DNA of 64,000 nt from Alphaproteobacteria bacterium (GTDB taxonomy: Bacteria > Pseudomonadota > Alphaproteobacteria > UBA828). This document shows, piece by piece, positions 9,783-55,515 of this stretch (position 1 is the first letter of the stretch; every line of letters starts with the position of its first letter). The translations under genes and the position numbers were made by a program. The notes under the pieces are model-generated. The model did not search any database. It was not told the origin of the DNA and worked only from the letters and a program-made list of their open reading frames with translations. Where the stretch lies: contig CBDCQT010000010.1 of the NCBI GenBank assembly GCA_965220745.1, positions 640,001-704,000 of the forward strand, written 5' to 3'.

Positions 9783-10040
9783 CCCCGGACGATGGTGCGG
9801 TGCAGGGGGTGAGGCGCTTGGGTCAGGATCGCCGCATGGACTGAGGGAGCGAACAGGTTGGCGCAGGCCGAGGACGGCTGAGCGCGCGGTCGTCGCTTGT
9901 GCGTTCAGGGTCACTTATCAGGGCCCGCGACCCATGCCCTCTACGCCCGCGACCTTCCCAGGCTCGGGCGACTCAGGCGTGCGCGACTCAGGCGCGGGCG
10001 ACATCCCGCCTAATCCCGGCTTGTCCCGCCTCAATAATTT
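9783..10040 (+). repeat. Dispersed element, copy A (decayed): conserved 5' motif, 15-bp tandem repeat and 10-bp repeats
   Basis: CCCCGGACGATGGTGCGGTGCA-N31-ATG; GCGACTCAGGCG twice (9968-9994); ACATCCCGCC/TAATCCCGGC/TTGTCCCGCC/TCAATAA (10001-10037). Confidence 0.6.
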
Positions 10041-10166
10041 GATGTGCGTCCCACGGGCCAGGCCGAGGCGCCGCCCCCGCCCGCTCCCCACCGCCGCGCG
10101 CCCTTCCGCCGGCGCGGCATCTGCGCCATGATCCCGCGCACACACGCCACGGATGGGGAGAGGGTC

Positions 10167-10946: not shown

Positions 10947-11738
10947 ATGGCCGGACGGCTGGCAGGCCGCGTCGCGCTCATCACCGGCGCCGCGAGGGGC
11001 CTCGGCGCTGCAATGGCGCGCGGGATGGCGGCGGAGGGCGCGCCGGTCGCGCTTAGCGACATCGACAAGGAGGGGGGCGAGGCGCTCGCGGCAGAGCTCG
11101 AGGCCGGCGGCGCCGAGACCATGTTCATCACCCTCGACACGACCAGGGAGGCCGATTGGGAGGCCGCGATCCCAGCGGTGATCGATCGCTTCGGCGGCCT
11201 CGACATTCTCGTCAACAACGCGGGCGTCGTCGTCGTCGAGCCGGTCGACGCGATTACGGTGGAAAGCTGGCAGAAGACCATGTCGGTCAACCTCGACGGC
11301 GTCTTCCTCGGCACCAAGCACGGCATGGCCGCGATGCGCGCGGGCGGCTCGATCATCAACATCTCCTCGATCATGGGCTTTACGGCCACGCCAGAGCTCA
11401 CCGCCTATTGCGCGAGCAAGGGGGCGGTCAGGCTCTTCACCAAAGGGGCGGCGCTGGACGGCGCCAAGGACGAACGCCGCATCCGGGTGAATTCGATTCA
11501 TCCCGGCTACATCCATACCGAAATGATGGAGGCCACCTGCTACAGCGAGTACGGCAGCCTCGAAGCGGGCATCGAGGCACTCGCCAAGCGCCACCCCATC
11601 GGGCGCGTGGGCAAGCCGGAGGACATCGCCAACGGCGCGATCTTCCTCGCGTCCGAGGAATCGAGCTTCATCACCGGCACTGAGCTGGTGATCGACGGCG
11701 GCTTCCTGGCGGTGGGCGGCTACGGCGTCCATCCGTAG
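10947..11738 (+). CDS. Classical SDR oxidoreductase (hydroxysteroid/cyclic alcohol dehydrogenase-like), paralog 1
   Basis: TGAARGLG, NNAG, YCASK, RVNSIHPG, DGG. Confidence 0.88.
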   Translation: MAGRLAGRVALITGAARGLGAAMARGMAAEGAPVALSDIDKEGGEALAAELEAGGAETMFITLDTTREADWEAAIPAVIDRFGGLDILVNNAGVVVVEPVDAITVESWQKTMSVNLDGVFLGTKHGMAAMRAGGSIINISSIMGFTATPELTAYCASKGAVRLFTKGAALDGAKDERRIRVNSIHPGYIHTEMMEATCYSEYGSLEAGIEALAKRHPIGRVGKPEDIANGAIFLASEESSFITGTELVIDGGFLAVGGYGVHP

Positions 11739-11792
11739 GCGGAGCAGCGCATAGCCCCTGTCATCATTCTTCAGGGAGATCGAAAAGGAACA

Positions 11793-11906
11793 CCCCCTCC
11801 TCATCTCGGCCTCTCCTCCCCCGCCGGGAGGAGAGGGAGAGAAATCCGGCGCTACCTACGTCCCCCCTCCGCCCTTCCGGGGGGAGGGGGACAGGGGGAG
11901 GTGGGG
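11793..11906. repeat. Inverted pair of alphaproteobacterial REP-like palindromic units between the duplicated SDRs
   Basis: CCTCTCCTCCC-ccgcc-GGGAGGAGAGG hairpin, followed by an oppositely oriented CCCCCTCCgCCC-ttcc-GGGGGGAGGGGG...GGGGAGG unit. Confidence 0.55.
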
Positions 11907-11941
11907 CGACCGTCGACAATTGACGAGAGGAGAAGCAGAGA

Positions 11942-12733
11942 ATGGCAGGACGACTGGAAGGCCGCGTCGCGCTCATCACCGGTGCCGGGAGGGGCCTCGG
12001 CGCAGCAATGGCGCGCGGGATGGCGGCGGAGGGCGCGCCGGTCGCGCTCAGCGATATCGATGAGGAAGGCGGCAAGGCGCTCGCAACGGAGCTTGGGGCC
12101 GGCGGCGCCGAGGCCATGTTCATCACCCTGGACACGACCAAGGAGGCCGATTGGGAAGCCGCGATCCCGGCCGTGATCGATCGCTTCGGCGGGCTCGACA
12201 TTCTCGTCAACAACGCGGGCGTCGGCATCGTCGAGCCGCTCGACGTGGTCACGCTGGAAAGCTGGCACAAGACCATGTCGGTCAACGTCGACGGCGTATT
12301 CCTCGGCACTAAGCACGGCATGGCCGCGATGCGCGCGGGCGGTTCGATCATCAACCTTTCCTCGATCCTGGGCTTTACGAGCATTCCGGCTCTCTCGGCC
12401 TACAGCGCGAGCAAGGGGGCAGTCAGACTCTTCACCAAGGCTGCGGCGCTGGACGGCGCCAAGGACGAACGCCGCATCCGGGTGAACTCGATTCACCCCG
12501 GCTACATCCATACCGAGATGATGGAAGCCACCTGCTACCGCGACTACGGCAGCCTGGAAGCGGGGATCGAGGCGCTCGCCAAGCAGCACCCCATCGGGCG
12601 CGTGGGCAAGCCGGAGGACATCGCCAACGGCGCGATCTTCCTCGCCTCGGAAGAGTCGAGCTTCATCACCGGCACGGAGCTTGTGATCGACGGCGGCTAC
12701 CTGGCGGTAGGCGGATACGACGTCCATCCGTAG
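11942..12733 (+). CDS. Classical SDR oxidoreductase, paralog 2 (tandem duplicate)
   Basis: TGAGRGLG, NNAG, YSASK; same length (263 aa) as paralog 1 with about 29 substitutions by manual count. Confidence 0.88.
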   Translation: MAGRLEGRVALITGAGRGLGAAMARGMAAEGAPVALSDIDEEGGKALATELGAGGAEAMFITLDTTKEADWEAAIPAVIDRFGGLDILVNNAGVGIVEPLDVVTLESWHKTMSVNVDGVFLGTKHGMAAMRAGGSIINLSSILGFTSIPALSAYSASKGAVRLFTKAAALDGAKDERRIRVNSIHPGYIHTEMMEATCYRDYGSLEAGIEALAKQHPIGRVGKPEDIANGAIFLASEESSFITGTELVIDGGYLAVGGYDVHP

Positions 12734-12820
12734 GAATACCTGCATTGGTCCGGCTTTGTCTGGGTTGTTCCGGACCGATCCGGCGCGCGACAACATCCTG
12801 AGACAAATGGAGAGACTGCG

Positions 12821-13837
12821 ATGAACGCGACCATCAATCGGCAGGTCAGGCTCGCGGCGCGGCCGGTGGGCATGCCGAAGGCAAGTGACTTCTCGCTGGC
12901 CGAGGAGCCGGCGCCCGAGCCCCGCCAGGGCCAAGCACTAGTGCGCGTGCTCTCGCTCTCGCTCGATCCCTACATGCGCGGGCGGATGAGCGACGCGAAA
13001 TCCTACGCAGCGCCGGTCGGCATCGGCGACGTGATGACCGGCGGCGCCGTGGGCGAGGTCGTGCGCTCGGAGACCGGGGGCCTCAAGGAAGGCGACCTGG
13101 TCGAGGGCATGTTCGGCTGGCAGGAATACGCGCTCTGCACGCGCGGCACCGCGCGGGTGCTGCCGGAGTCCGGCCATCCGCCCTCCTACGCCCTCGGCAT
13201 CCTCGGCATGCCGGGCGCCACCGCGTACTTTGGCCTGTTGGAGGTGGGACAGCCGCACCCCGGCGACACGGTGGTGGTCTCGGCGGCCTCGGGCGCGGTG
13301 GGCGCCGCGGTGGGGCAGATCGCCAAGATCGGCGGCTGCCGGGTGGTCGGCACGGTGGGCAGCGACGAGAAGGCGGCCTACATCACGGACGGGCTGGGCT
13401 TCGACGCCGCGATCAACTACCGCACGGCGAACGACATCGGCGCGGCGCTGGACGAAGCCTGCCCCGGCGGCATCGATGTCTACTTCGACAACGTGGGCGG
13501 CCCGATGACCGACGCGGTGATGCAACGCCTCGCCTTCAAGGCGCGCGTCGTGGTCTGCGGCTGCATCCACCACTACAACCTGACCGAGCCCTACCTCGGG
13601 CCGAGCCATCTGCGCCACATCCTCGTCAACCGGGCGCGGGTCGAGGGTTTCCTGGTGTTCGACTGGCTGGCCCGCTACCCGGAGGCGTTCGCGCGGCTCA
13701 CGGCGTGGCTCGACGACGGCTCCATGACCTACAGGGAGCACGTGATCGAGGGGCTGGAGAACGCGCCCGAAGGGCTCGGGATGCTGTTCGAGGGGCGCAA
13801 CTTCGGCAAGCTCGTGGTCAAGGTGGCGGAGCGCTGA
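12821..13837 (+). CDS. NADP-dependent oxidoreductase (CurA/PTGR-like, MDR family)
   Basis: SLDPYMRGRM, LGMPGATAYFGL, SAASGAVG, YFDNVGG, GRNFGKLVV. Confidence 0.88.
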   Translation: MNATINRQVRLAARPVGMPKASDFSLAEEPAPEPRQGQALVRVLSLSLDPYMRGRMSDAKSYAAPVGIGDVMTGGAVGEVVRSETGGLKEGDLVEGMFGWQEYALCTRGTARVLPESGHPPSYALGILGMPGATAYFGLLEVGQPHPGDTVVVSAASGAVGAAVGQIAKIGGCRVVGTVGSDEKAAYITDGLGFDAAINYRTANDIGAALDEACPGGIDVYFDNVGGPMTDAVMQRLAFKARVVVCGCIHHYNLTEPYLGPSHLRHILVNRARVEGFLVFDWLARYPEAFARLTAWLDDGSMTYREHVIEGLENAPEGLGMLFEGRNFGKLVVKVAER

Positions 13838-38293: not shown

Positions 38294-38469
38294 TAGAGCG
38301 TTTCCGTTACACGAAAACGCTCTGGCTTCTTTGTCGCTCGCGGCAGCCTGCCGACGGCCGGCGCCTCCGCGTCGCGCGTCCACGCGCGCGGGCGCGCGAC
38401 GCGGAGGCGCTGAAGCGGCGGACCGCAGTCGCGGCCTGTCGCGTGTCCGTCAAAGTCGGACACGCTCTA
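38294..38469. mobile_element. MITE-like palindromic element (TAGAGCG...CGCTCTA ends) with three hairpins
   Basis: Terminal IR TAGAGCGT/ACGCTCTA; hairpins AGAGCGTTT...AAACGCTCT, GCGCCTCCGCGTCGCGCG...CGCGCGACGCGGAGGCGC (18-bp perfect stem, 38361-38410) and GCGTGTCCG...CGGACACGC. Confidence 0.65.
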
Positions 38470-38554
38470 GCTGACGCCGGGGCCCAATCGCAGAAGCTAG
38501 AAAATTGCGCGCGAACTGTGCGGCGTCTGCTCCTCGGGATCGGGGAGAGAGGGT

Positions 38555-39400: not shown

Positions 39401-39640
39401 CGCCGGACCATAGTGCGGTGCACGCAGCGGGCGGGGGAAGGCAGACTCGGCGGATGCGTCGCCCCGTCCATGACCCTGTCGAGAAATGCGGGCTGGGATG
39501 CGCCGCTCCGGTCCGCAGTGGGCCACCTTGGGCCGCTCGCCCCGGACCATCTTGGGCCACCTTGGGCCGCTTTGGGCCGGAATAGGCCGCCTTAAAACCT
39601 TCTTTCGGAACTTTCCGGGATTCTTCACCTGTCTCGGGCA
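39401..39640 (+). repeat. Dispersed element, copy B (internally deleted) with a 10-bp repeat array
   Basis: CCGGACCATAGTGCGGTGCA-N31-ATG (39454); array of CTTGGGCCAC-like units at 39517-39597; aligns to the reverse complement of 55039-55196 and 55429-55513. Confidence 0.75.
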
Positions 39641-39708: not shown

Positions 39709-39735
39709 TTAGCACTCACTACTAGCGAGTGCTAA
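39709..39735. promoter_or_regulatory. CIRCE element (HrcA operator)
   Basis: Exact TTAGCACTC-N9-GAGTGCTAA upstream of groES. Confidence 0.95.
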
Positions 39736-39777
39736 CATCTCTATCAGACGATCTTACAGACGAACGTGGAGGAACCA

Positions 39778-55038: not shown

Positions 55039-55515
55039 TGCCCGAACGCCTGGGCGGGAGGAATCCCGGTAAATTTCGAAAGAGTATTTTAAGGTGGCCT
55101 ATTCCGGCCCACTCCGGCCCAAAGCGGCCCAAGGTGGCCCAAGGTGGTCCAGGCAAGCGGCCCAAGGTGGCTCATGACGGACCGGAGCGGCGCATCGGAT
55201 GGGAGTGGATATCGAGCCGGTACGCGCCTTCGTCGTGTGTCTCCGGGGTCCATCCATACCAGTCGCCCTCGACCTCGGCGCGGATGATGGCAACGGCCTC
55301 GGGCGACAGCCCGCCGCCGCCCTTCGGCGTCTTGTTTCGCCCGGCGTCCATGCGGGCGACGGCGCTCTCGCGCTCCGCATCGCTCTTGCCGGCGCCTTCG
55401 ATGCGGTGCATGGCGAGCGCGAGCGGGGATTTGTCGACCGGGTGATGGTCTGCGCGATGCATCCGCGCAGCCTGCCCCGACCCGCCCGCCCCGTGCACCG
55501 CACCATGGTCCGGGG
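55039..55515 (-). repeat. Dispersed element, copy C (longest) with a 10-bp repeat array
   Basis: Reverse complement reads CCCCGGACCATGGTGCGGTGCA-N31-ATG (55462), ORF, then CTTGGGCCAC/CTTGGGCCGC/TTTGGGCCGG/AGTGGGCCGG/AATAGGCCAC/CTTAAAA. Confidence 0.75.
55172..55462 (-). CDS. Element-encoded small hypothetical protein (96 aa)
   Basis: MHRADHHPVDKSPLALAMHRIEG...GDWYGWTPETHDEGAYRLD; N-terminus similar to the copy B ORF MRRPVHDPVEKCGL. Confidence 0.4.
   Translation of the reverse strand: MHRADHHPVDKSPLALAMHRIEGAGKSDAERESAVARMDAGRNKTPKGGGGLSPEAVAIIRAEVEGDWYGWTPETHDEGAYRLDIHSHPMRRSGPS

Follow-up and report, generated by a model that had tools for sequence, protein, structure and literature searches.

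What is the element that occurs three times in a 64,000-nt stretch of DNA from an alphaproteobacterium (contig CBDCQT010000010.1, positions 640,001 to 704,000; hereafter the window), each time as a conserved 20-nt box, an ATG at a fixed distance and an array of 10-bp repeats? The first-pass annotation treated the three loci, here called copies A, B and C, as a three-copy dispersed element, perhaps a non-autonomous or decaying member of an uncharacterised mobile family. The loci are examined here in the window, in its source genome (G000) and in sister species (other G numbers). They are probably degraded cassettes, each derived from a promoter of the type activated by Mor and C of phage Mu, a Phage_Mu_Gp27 gene expressed from a leaderless mRNA, and a cognate repeat array with a putative pac-like role, within a phage-derived regulon that is probably Mor-switched. 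Dispersed small-terminase cassettes of this kind are a new assembly of known parts. The mobile family is unproven, and small-terminase cassettes of a phage-derived regulon describe the loci better.

Shared Architecture of the Three Loci

The architecture reported in the first-pass annotation was recovered at all three loci. The box CCGGAC[C/G]AT[G/A]GTGCGGTGCA is followed by exactly 31 nt and then by an ATG at 9836 (copy A), 39454 (copy B) and 55462 (copy C). The hexamer located 6 nt upstream of the ATG reads CAGGAT, CAGACT and CAGGCT, respectively. When the box, N31 and ATG were searched for together at no more than one mismatch, three matches were obtained in the window against 0.00 expected from 100 shuffles. 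The downstream 10-bp repeats were detected by Tandem Repeats Finder as period-10 arrays at 10003–10031, 39547–39579 and 55103–55151. The reported state of the open reading frame (ORF) also holds: copy C keeps a 96-aa ORF (55462–55175), copy A reads ATG GAC TGA, and copy B is a shorter derivative.

Identity of the Open Reading Frame

The small ORF is a truncated Phage_Mu_Gp27 gene and not a gene in its own right. An ORF of 257–271 aa is present in six copies of the cassette. The full-length protein matches PF11985 (E-value of 3.7e-27; 96 bits, where the cut-off is 28) and also phrog_426, "terminase small subunit" (4e-33). There are nine PF11985 matches in G000, all of them downstream of a box. 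These profile matches identify the cassette ORF as Phage_Mu_Gp27 (DUF3486, small-terminase-like). On its own, the ORF of copy C reaches 13.5 bits against PF11985, which is under the cut-off.

The derivation of copies B and C follows from comparison with an intact type-2 Gp27 gene at G000:C10:709858, 5.8 kb outside the window, whose start codon lies 66 nt downstream of the conserved ATG. Copy C is a type-2 cassette that lacks 372 bp internally. Its 96-aa ORF is accidental because this deletion joins the upstream ATG in frame to residues 115–198, which are 90% identical to the intact protein. With its stop codon the ORF occupies 55172–55462 on the reverse strand and consists of the start of the type-2 upstream ORF (uORF) fused to Gp27 residues 115–198. 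Copy B is a type-2 cassette from which nearly the whole gene has been deleted. Its conserved ATG and type-2 leader are joined by the deletion to the last codons of the gene (39454–39519, forward strand), with the junction at CTGGGATGC. The orthologues of copy B in G006, G015 and G001 keep about 100 bp more, including the first codons of the gene, and the additional loss in G000 and G011 falls between two CTGGGATGC repeats. Copy A has an array of the TCCC type and no coding remnant. Its ATG, the apparent start of both transcription and leaderless translation, is followed by GAC TGA (9836–9844, forward strand), and the Gp27 coding sequence is gone. The suggestion that the loci are decaying, non-autonomous derivatives is thus borne out, and copy B is an insertion polymorphism. 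Intact Gp27 genes comprise one of the GGGCC class, 5.8 kb outside the window, and six of the TCCC class elsewhere in G000.

In phage YPCBV-1 and in a prophage of G002, the Gp27 homologue immediately precedes terL, and the two genes overlap. None of the nine Gp27 genes of G000 adjoins terL, and the cassette genes are therefore homologues outside the canonical context. The number of Gp27 matches per genome ranges from 1 to 15 in the 17 sister species that carry the box. Values of dN/dS (the ratio of nonsynonymous to synonymous substitution rates) for the six type-1 Gp27 paralogues are 0.17–0.49. Among INPHARED phages only distant relatives were found (33–39% identity), and a scan of viral contigs with the Gp27 protein gave no relative. 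The AlphaFold2 (AF2) model of Gp27 has a mean predicted local distance difference test (pLDDT) score of 64.7, with a confident N-terminal helix-turn-helix (HTH) and long helices. One Gp27 gene, at C12:719052, has no ATG at +51 relative to its box and is followed by a 446-aa ORF (C12:720557–721897) named transposase-like by eye.

Activator Box and Promoter Geometry

The box occupies 9785–9804 in copy A (16-bp palindrome at 9785–9800 plus 4 nt) and 39403–39422 in copy B, both on the forward strand, and 55494–55513 on the reverse strand in copy C. A position table was built from 40 copies. Conservation extends from −53 to −32, and there is little upstream of −54 or downstream of +4. Positions are numbered from the A of the ATG, which was set at +1 on the basis of the −10 element; on this numbering the 16-bp palindrome CCGnACCATGGTnCGG spans −51 to −36 and its dyad centre is at −43.5. 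The −10 element is CAnnAT at −12 to −7; its A at −11 is found in 40 of 40 copies and its T at −7 in 38. The corresponding hexamers are located at 9824–9829 (copy A, forward strand), 39442–39447 (copy B, forward strand) and 55469–55474 (copy C, reverse strand). No sigma-70 consensus promoter was found at copy C, where a −35 hexamer is absent.

Mor and C of phage Mu bind a 16-bp dyad whose centre is at −43.5; the promoters concerned have a −10 element and no −35 element (PMC4390567; PMC2582627). The cassette box has the geometry of these Mor/C-dependent promoters and on that ground is a Mor/C-type activator box. We infer that the cassette promoters depend on a Mor-like activator. The first-pass annotation had read GTGCAC as the −35 element of a sigma-70 promoter. 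Its promoter survives, and a leaderless transcript is most likely given the conservation at −11 and −7 and the use of the ATG as a true gene start. The −35 assignment does not survive, because the 20-mer is a box of the Mor/C type with its centre at −43.5, and the promoter has no −35 element. Two other readings of the box were rejected. The GG/GC spacing is unsuitable for sigma-54 (by inspection of the three window loci), and as a recombinase core site the palindrome is present in one copy only beside each cassette.

Mor-Like Activator and Dispersed Phage-Derived Genes

A gene of the Mor family was identified at G000:C10:100895–101242 by matches to PF08765 (27.7 bits; cut-off 24.9) and phrog_836, "late transcriptional activator" (8e-14). 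The family model missed this gene at threshold in the genome-wide search, and it was detected in direct ORF scans. Its neighbours encode GemA, Mu Gam and an S24 CI-like repressor. In G000 the box also stands upstream of every phage-derived unit. It precedes a lysis cassette (DUF5675, holin-like and DUF2730-like genes), the single Mu-type head-tail operon of the genome, from the protease through the tail genes, and the sole Mu portal gene; terL has a degenerate box in front of it. These units sit among housekeeping genes at distances of 17–107 kb from one another, in the neighbourhood of the module of repressor, Gam, GemA and Mor-like genes.

The same design is found once in contiguous form. 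In a Mu-like prophage of G002, the perfect palindrome CGGGACCATGGTCCCG occurs 13 nt past mor, with TACCAT at the same offset, and the genes behind it are ordered lysis-gp27-terL-portal. As a separate observation, G002 carries contiguous Mu-like prophages (four portal and four capsid matches) besides its dispersed set, with a palindrome that is related to, and distinct from, that of the cassettes (G002:C1:203000–213000).

Box and phage genes occur together across the genus. Among the 17 box-bearing species, a Mor-like gene was found in 15, a capsid gene in 16 and a PF11985 match in all 17. The Mor-like gene was missed in G001 and G007 (92% and 67% complete) and the capsid gene in G018. The three box-free species of the genus (G012, G016 and G017) gave no Mor-like, capsid or PF11985 match. 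The capsid gene is single-copy in most species, with 92–100% amino acid identity, and its dN/dS is 0.12 at a dS of 0.42 (G000 versus G003). Housekeeping genes flank the phage-derived loci, which are distributed over separate sites or replicons. The structural genes are thus kept across the clade, under purifying selection, without linkage to a complete prophage, which is one of the features expected of gene transfer agents (GTAs).

Two further observations concern these genes. G018 has 21 boxes, a Mu portal gene and one partial PF11985 match, and the capsid query found no match there; in this species the head module may have been lost or exchanged for another, with the boxes remaining. Two identical open frames of 584 aa (G000:C10:141492 and C10:185380) and a related one (C1:1320) match Mu-transpos_C (PF09299). 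They probably represent a transposon that is present twice, and they are unlinked to the cassettes.

Probable Leaderless Start and Upstream Open Reading Frames

The conserved ATG is the start codon of the DUF5675 gene, whose Pfam domain begins at residue 5, and of terL (MVGPASSESLHLSLLPYQ). In several lineages it is also the start codon of Gp27, and diverged copies open with MQNE exactly at +51 relative to the box. At three promoters, those of the head-tail operon, the portal gene and type-2 Gp27, the ATG is out of frame with the main gene. In all three the stop codon of the resulting uORF overlaps the main start as ATGA or TGATG. There is no space for a leader because the −10 element ends 6 nt upstream of the ATG. 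Since the ATG is either a true start or the start of a uORF that overlaps the next gene, stop to start, a leaderless mRNA is supported. The cassette transcripts most likely begin at the A of the ATG.

Repeat Arrays and Helix–Heptamer Covariation

At the end of each cassette, heptamers recur with a 10-bp phase and an A+T-rich box comes after them; the TCCC type has one further heptamer exactly 25 nt later. Autocorrelation over all arrays of G000 at lags of 10, 20 and 30 is 0.61, 0.48 and 0.38 for the GGGCC type and 0.42, 0.38 and 0.36 for the TCCC type, and the shuffle maximum is 0.32. In copy A the TCCC-type array consists of three 10-bp units, ATCCCGC, ATCCCGG and GTCCCGC (10003–10029, forward strand). 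The A+T-rich box and the last heptamer, GTCCCAC, 25 nt past the previous one, follow at 10030–10054, and homology to other copies stops within this segment. Upstream of the heptamers of copy A, a 15-bp tandem repeat of 2.9 copies was detected at 9959–10002 (forward strand; Tandem Repeats Finder, period 15). Copy B has a GGGCC-type 10-bp array at 39520–39591 with the A+T-rich box downstream at 39592–39610, both on the forward strand. In copy C, on the reverse strand, a GGGCC-type array of eight 10-bp units begins at the stop codon (55093–55171) and is followed by the A+T-rich box (55071–55092).

The protein and the heptamer were compared across cassettes. From 74 sources 70 Gp27 segments were obtained, and a helix could be extracted from 60 of them; the ten others, truncated or canonical, were left unscored. 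In the type-1 protein the predicted recognition helix covers residues 66–76 (residue 68 is the first of the helix in the AF2 model), and the residues that vary are at the beginning of the second of the helices in the predicted HTH. Proteins with a helix reading CSRSAVGRY.. are paired with (A/G)TCCC heptamers in 42 evaluable cassettes without exception. In this class four cassettes were read by eye because the automatic window had taken another repeat, and three more were left out, their loci stopping short of the 3′ region. Valine or cysteine at helix position 7 is paired with GGGCCAC or GAGCCAC in four of four cases. Alanine or asparagine at the same position goes with GTGCC in four of four, one of them mixed, and alanine at position 4 goes with (G/A)TCTC in two of two. 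Five segments with unrelated helices have no array. The related type-2 proteins of G019 and G020 differ in helix and heptamer alike.

Because the heptamer covaries with the predicted recognition helix of the Gp27 protein encoded in cis, the arrays are most likely the binding sites of the Gp27 of their own cassette. The earlier suggestion that the repeats are same-face protein-binding sites is therefore very probable. The covariation is suggestive rather than statistical proof because the classes are few and their members are related. We rejected a reading of the arrays as sites bound at transposon ends, since they have no inverted counterpart on the 5′ side and the GCGGGAT found near some start codons is not conserved. 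One solo array of mixed TCTC and TCCC units, without a box, is located at G000:C10:102060–102200, immediately past the genes for the Mor-like and Dps-like proteins. A cassette beside the regulatory module was probably lost and left this array as its 3′ relic.

Copy Number and Distribution

The count of three holds for the window alone; approximately 46 copies are present genome-wide. In G000 (4.8 Mb, 13 contigs) the box has 63 matches at no more than three mismatches. An ATG follows at +50 to +52 in 47 of these (40 at +51, six at +52 and one at +50), one of which is a palindromic copy read in reverse. The 46 promoters comprise three phage units, eight full Gp27 genes with an array, copy C, 19 short units with a TCCC array, nine short units with a GGGCC array, and six in which no array was found by pattern search, one of these being split by an insertion. 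Short units of promoter and array thus make up 28 of the 46. One cassette is split by approximately 3.2 kb with a 339-aa ORF named transposase-like by eye (G000:C12:494986–498394).

The 20-mer, at no more than one mismatch, occurs 40 times in G000 and 7–54 times each in 17 of 20 species of the same genus. It was absent from 20 genomes of other genera of the same family, order and class, and the reversed control pattern gave no match. The 20-mer is identical between species whose flanking DNA is 83–94% identical.

History of the Window Copies

Copy A is also present in G011, G006, G015 and G001, and copy C occupies the same site in G006, G011 and G008. Copy B is present in G000, G011, G006, G015 and G001. 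Its site is a spacer of 32–54 bp in at least 11 species (G008, G005, G009, G013, G014, G004, G018, G002, G007, G020 and G019). On the left the junction is no more than 4 nt from the box, and on the right it is blurred by divergence. The 3′ end of copy B shows an apparent similarity to the empty site, perhaps by chance. With respect to mobility, a comparison of orthologous empty sites yielded a filled and empty pair (copy B, one pair) and no clear target duplication.

No terminal inverted repeats were found in copy A or B, and copy C has only the box palindrome and G+C-rich chance pairs. Neither a transposase nor an integrase was found inside the cassette copies. The absence of transposase, integrase and inverted ends noted in the first-pass annotation accordingly stands, and it extends to a clear target duplication.

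Several features were observed beside the cassettes. The insertion point of copy B is just upstream of the heat-shock control region of groES/groEL. The inverted repeat TTAGCACTC-N9-GAGTGCTAA at 39711–39737, immediately upstream of groES/groEL, is of the CIRCE type (controlling inverted repeat of chaperone expression). Downstream of copy A, two tandem short-chain dehydrogenase paralogues with near-identical N-termini are located at 10947–12950.

Other small repeats are also present. A repeat of approximately 170 bp with hairpin-like ends (AGAGCGTTTCCG... / ...CGGACAYGCTCT) occurs at window positions 38300–38470 and at many sites in G000 and in most sister species, with 80–92% identity. It looks like a separate family of miniature inverted-repeat transposable elements (MITEs), and one copy (G000:C5:321045–321214) lies 22 nt upstream of a cassette box. 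Mosaic repeats resembling repetitive extragenic palindromes (REPs), with the form …TCATTTCCCTCA…GCGCCGTCCGGGC-loop-GCCCGG…GGCAAAC…GTTGCCGG, were found at G000:C3:15960–16160, C7:308380–308580 and C12:350085–350285, and again downstream of the cassettes concerned. Several type-1 cassettes have such repeats, oriented alike, on either side, and the distance to the box is constant in 8–9 copies.

Proposed Explanation and Alternatives

The proposed cassette plan consists of a Mor/C-type promoter, a leaderless mRNA, a stand-alone Gp27 gene, and heptamers phased at 10 bp with an A+T-rich box. Inactivation of the S24 repressor would lead to synthesis of the Mor-like activator, and all of the approximately 46 promoters would then fire together. 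The Gp27 proteins would bind their own cognate heptamer arrays, as the helix–heptamer covariation suggests. The complex of Gp27 and array would most likely recruit the single TerL in the manner of a pac-type site, and the phage-derived particles could thereby start packaging at many places on the chromosome. Copies A, B and C could be bound in trans by an intact Gp27 of the same class, which is conceivable because all three keep an intact promoter and array.

A broader version of this proposal is tentative and on balance somewhat doubtful. It states that the genus carries a domesticated, Mor-switched particle system of Mu type, in which tens of cassettes, each a small terminase (TerS) plus its site and with at least four co-evolving specificities, serve as programmed packaging starts. 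The ORF-less copies would be recognised in trans, and induction would result in directional, multi-origin transduction of the entire genome, as a built-in form of lateral transduction.

Several results weigh against the cassette explanation. The Gp27 carried by the G002 prophage ends right past the ...VEG motif and has neither the C-terminal tail nor an array. The pac site of Mu is at the genome end. Because of these two points, a known pac site acquired by inheritance does not account for the arrays. In fold searches, the AF2 model recovered no significant small-terminase match. The best Foldseek E-value against the PDB was 0.16, with the P74-26 and G20C TerS proteins at approximately 1.4–1.5, and VIA-align against PDB representatives gave generic helical hairpins only (Z up to 8.3). 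The covariation contains few independent switches (four classes), and many of the cassettes are paralogues or orthologues. Six RNA runs, available as contigs, contained 0.06–0.12 of the sampled words; the four that were aligned consist mostly of groESL from relatives, and runs in contig form cannot give start sites, strand or level. The copy B orthologues are decaying, through an extra deletion in G000 and G011, variation in how many units the array has, and a C-to-T substitution at −33 in G011 and G006, a pattern that suits relics as well as working sites.

That last point belongs to an account, unlikely in our judgement, in which the short copies, A, B and C included, are functionless debris of duplicated and decayed terS cassettes whose promoter and array persist only through their small size. 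The copy B deletions between short direct repeats, the changes in array-unit number and the box substitution in two species are what such decay would produce. Solo arrays and array-less promoters also occur (two arrays without a box, two with a four-mismatch box and six promoters without an array), and the short ORFs opened by the ATG are not conserved. Random decay should, however, hit box and leader equally. When promoters were counted from the array side, and therefore without selection on the box, a box at no more than three mismatches was found upstream of 31 of 36 genuine arrays (14 with none, 12 with one, three with two and two with three mismatches); the remainder are the four arrays just mentioned and one that is split. 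The ATG is kept in 30 of these 31, yet the leader (+4 to +24) retains only 0.03–0.8 bit per position, far below the box. The identity of the 20-mer across species with diverged flanks also argues against debris. A non-autonomous, MITE-like element moved by some transposase, as the first-pass annotation proposed, would account for the dozens of dispersed copies and for the presence of copy B in five species and its absence from the same intergenic site in at least 11. It would also fit the leader that many short copies share and every full-length gene of G000 lacks, in a genome that is rich in other small repeats. This reading is nevertheless improbable: terminal inverted repeats are lacking, the one filled and empty pair shows no clear target duplication, no copy contains a transposase, and the ends are a promoter and a protein-tracking array, as expected of a functional gene cassette and not of transposon ends.

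Two further alternatives assign the cassettes other functions. If Gp27-like initiators on phased repeats beside an A+T-rich unwinding box fired local run-off replication that feeds DNA into particles upon induction, the cassettes would be amplification modules of iteron type. The plan of a gene, direct repeats and an A+T-rich box, with covariation of protein and repeat, does resemble that of iteron replicons. Usual iterons, however, are 17–22 bp, compared with the 10-bp heptamer spacing found here, and the family occupies the small-terminase position in real phages, matches PF11985 and phrog_426, and has no helicase-loader or Rep domain that could be seen; the idea is very improbable. A regulon in which a small RNA or peptide is the relevant product, as a short leaderless transcript with repeated CCC or GGCC motifs, would explain why promoter and ATG are kept in ORF-less copies. 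It is extremely improbable: Rfam gave no window match at gathering thresholds, the fold of the copy C transcript is not better than those of shuffled sequences (z = −0.18), the short ORFs vary between copies, and the array covaries with a DNA-binding helix.

If the cassette explanation holds, a cell or a domesticated phage would choose packaging start sites through multiplied small-terminase genes and matching sites, as opposed to the relaxed terminase specificity of the GTA of Rhodobacter capsulatus (RcGTA). The cassettes would also provide a natural specificity series, in which one residue of the predicted helix (G, V/C or A/N) tracks TCCC, GGCC or GTGCC heptamers, and a comparative case of activator-dependent promoters that give leaderless mRNAs with stop-start-coupled uORFs. 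Even if the short copies are relics, approximately 46 conserved 20-mers per genome are explained in uncultured Alphaproteobacteria, and intergenic repeats derived from a regulon are marked as such.

Comparison with Known Systems

The middle and late promoters of Mu that are activated by Mor or C (Pm, Plys, PI, PP and Pmom) share with the cassette promoters a 16-bp imperfect dyad at −43.5 and a −10 element without a −35. In both systems an activator gene of the Mor/C family lies beside GemA and Gam, and lysis, packaging and head genes are driven. Mu has five such promoters, compared with approximately 46 per genome here, where the dyad sequence is CCGnACCATGGTnCGG and a single Mor/C homologue was found in G000. 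Here the transcripts apparently start at the A of the start codon, in some cases by way of a stop-start-coupled uORF. In the literature searched, from which subscription journals were excluded, no description of leaderless, Mor-linked prophage late promoters was found.

The Mu gp27/DUF3486 small terminase resembles the cassette protein in its PF11985 and phrog_426 matches, and in its predicted HTH and long helices. The short repeated sites beside the cassette gene recall the pac sites of P1, P22 and SPP1, which are located within terS genes or next to them. The phage gene is single-copy and overlaps terL, whereas the genes described here are uncoupled from terL and number 1–15 matches per genome. 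The tail and array found here are absent from the phage-borne gene, and most copies here have no ORF. The same literature search returned no account of a Mu-type GTA, of DUF3486 expansions or of such cassettes; what it returned on DUF3486 concerns a halovirus only.

MITEs and REP-like repeats are likewise short, non-coding and dispersed in many copies, with presence and absence between species. The cassettes differ from them in having no inverted ends and no visible target duplication, and in ending in a promoter and a protein-specific array.

In GTAs, RcGTA genes occupy scattered loci, its TerS packages without a specific site, and the Bartonella agent BaGTA uses a run-off replication origin. 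The genus described here resembles these systems in that its head, tail, lysis and packaging genes of phage origin lie dispersed between housekeeping genes and are single-copy and under purifying selection. It differs in having a Mu-type gene set with its own repressor and Mor switch and many cassettes of TerS plus site.

The small terminases of Staphylococcus aureus pathogenicity islands (SaPIs) and other phage-inducible chromosomal islands (PICIs), together with lateral transduction, offer a further parallel. In the islands a TerS with its own site, switched on by the late activator of a helper, redirects the shared TerL. A cassette of TerS and its own site under a late activator would likewise redirect the shared TerL and move the neighbouring chromosome. 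Unlike those islands, the cassettes measure only 0.25–1 kb, lack genes for integrase, replication and capsid remodelling, and are fixed in related species at orthologous positions.

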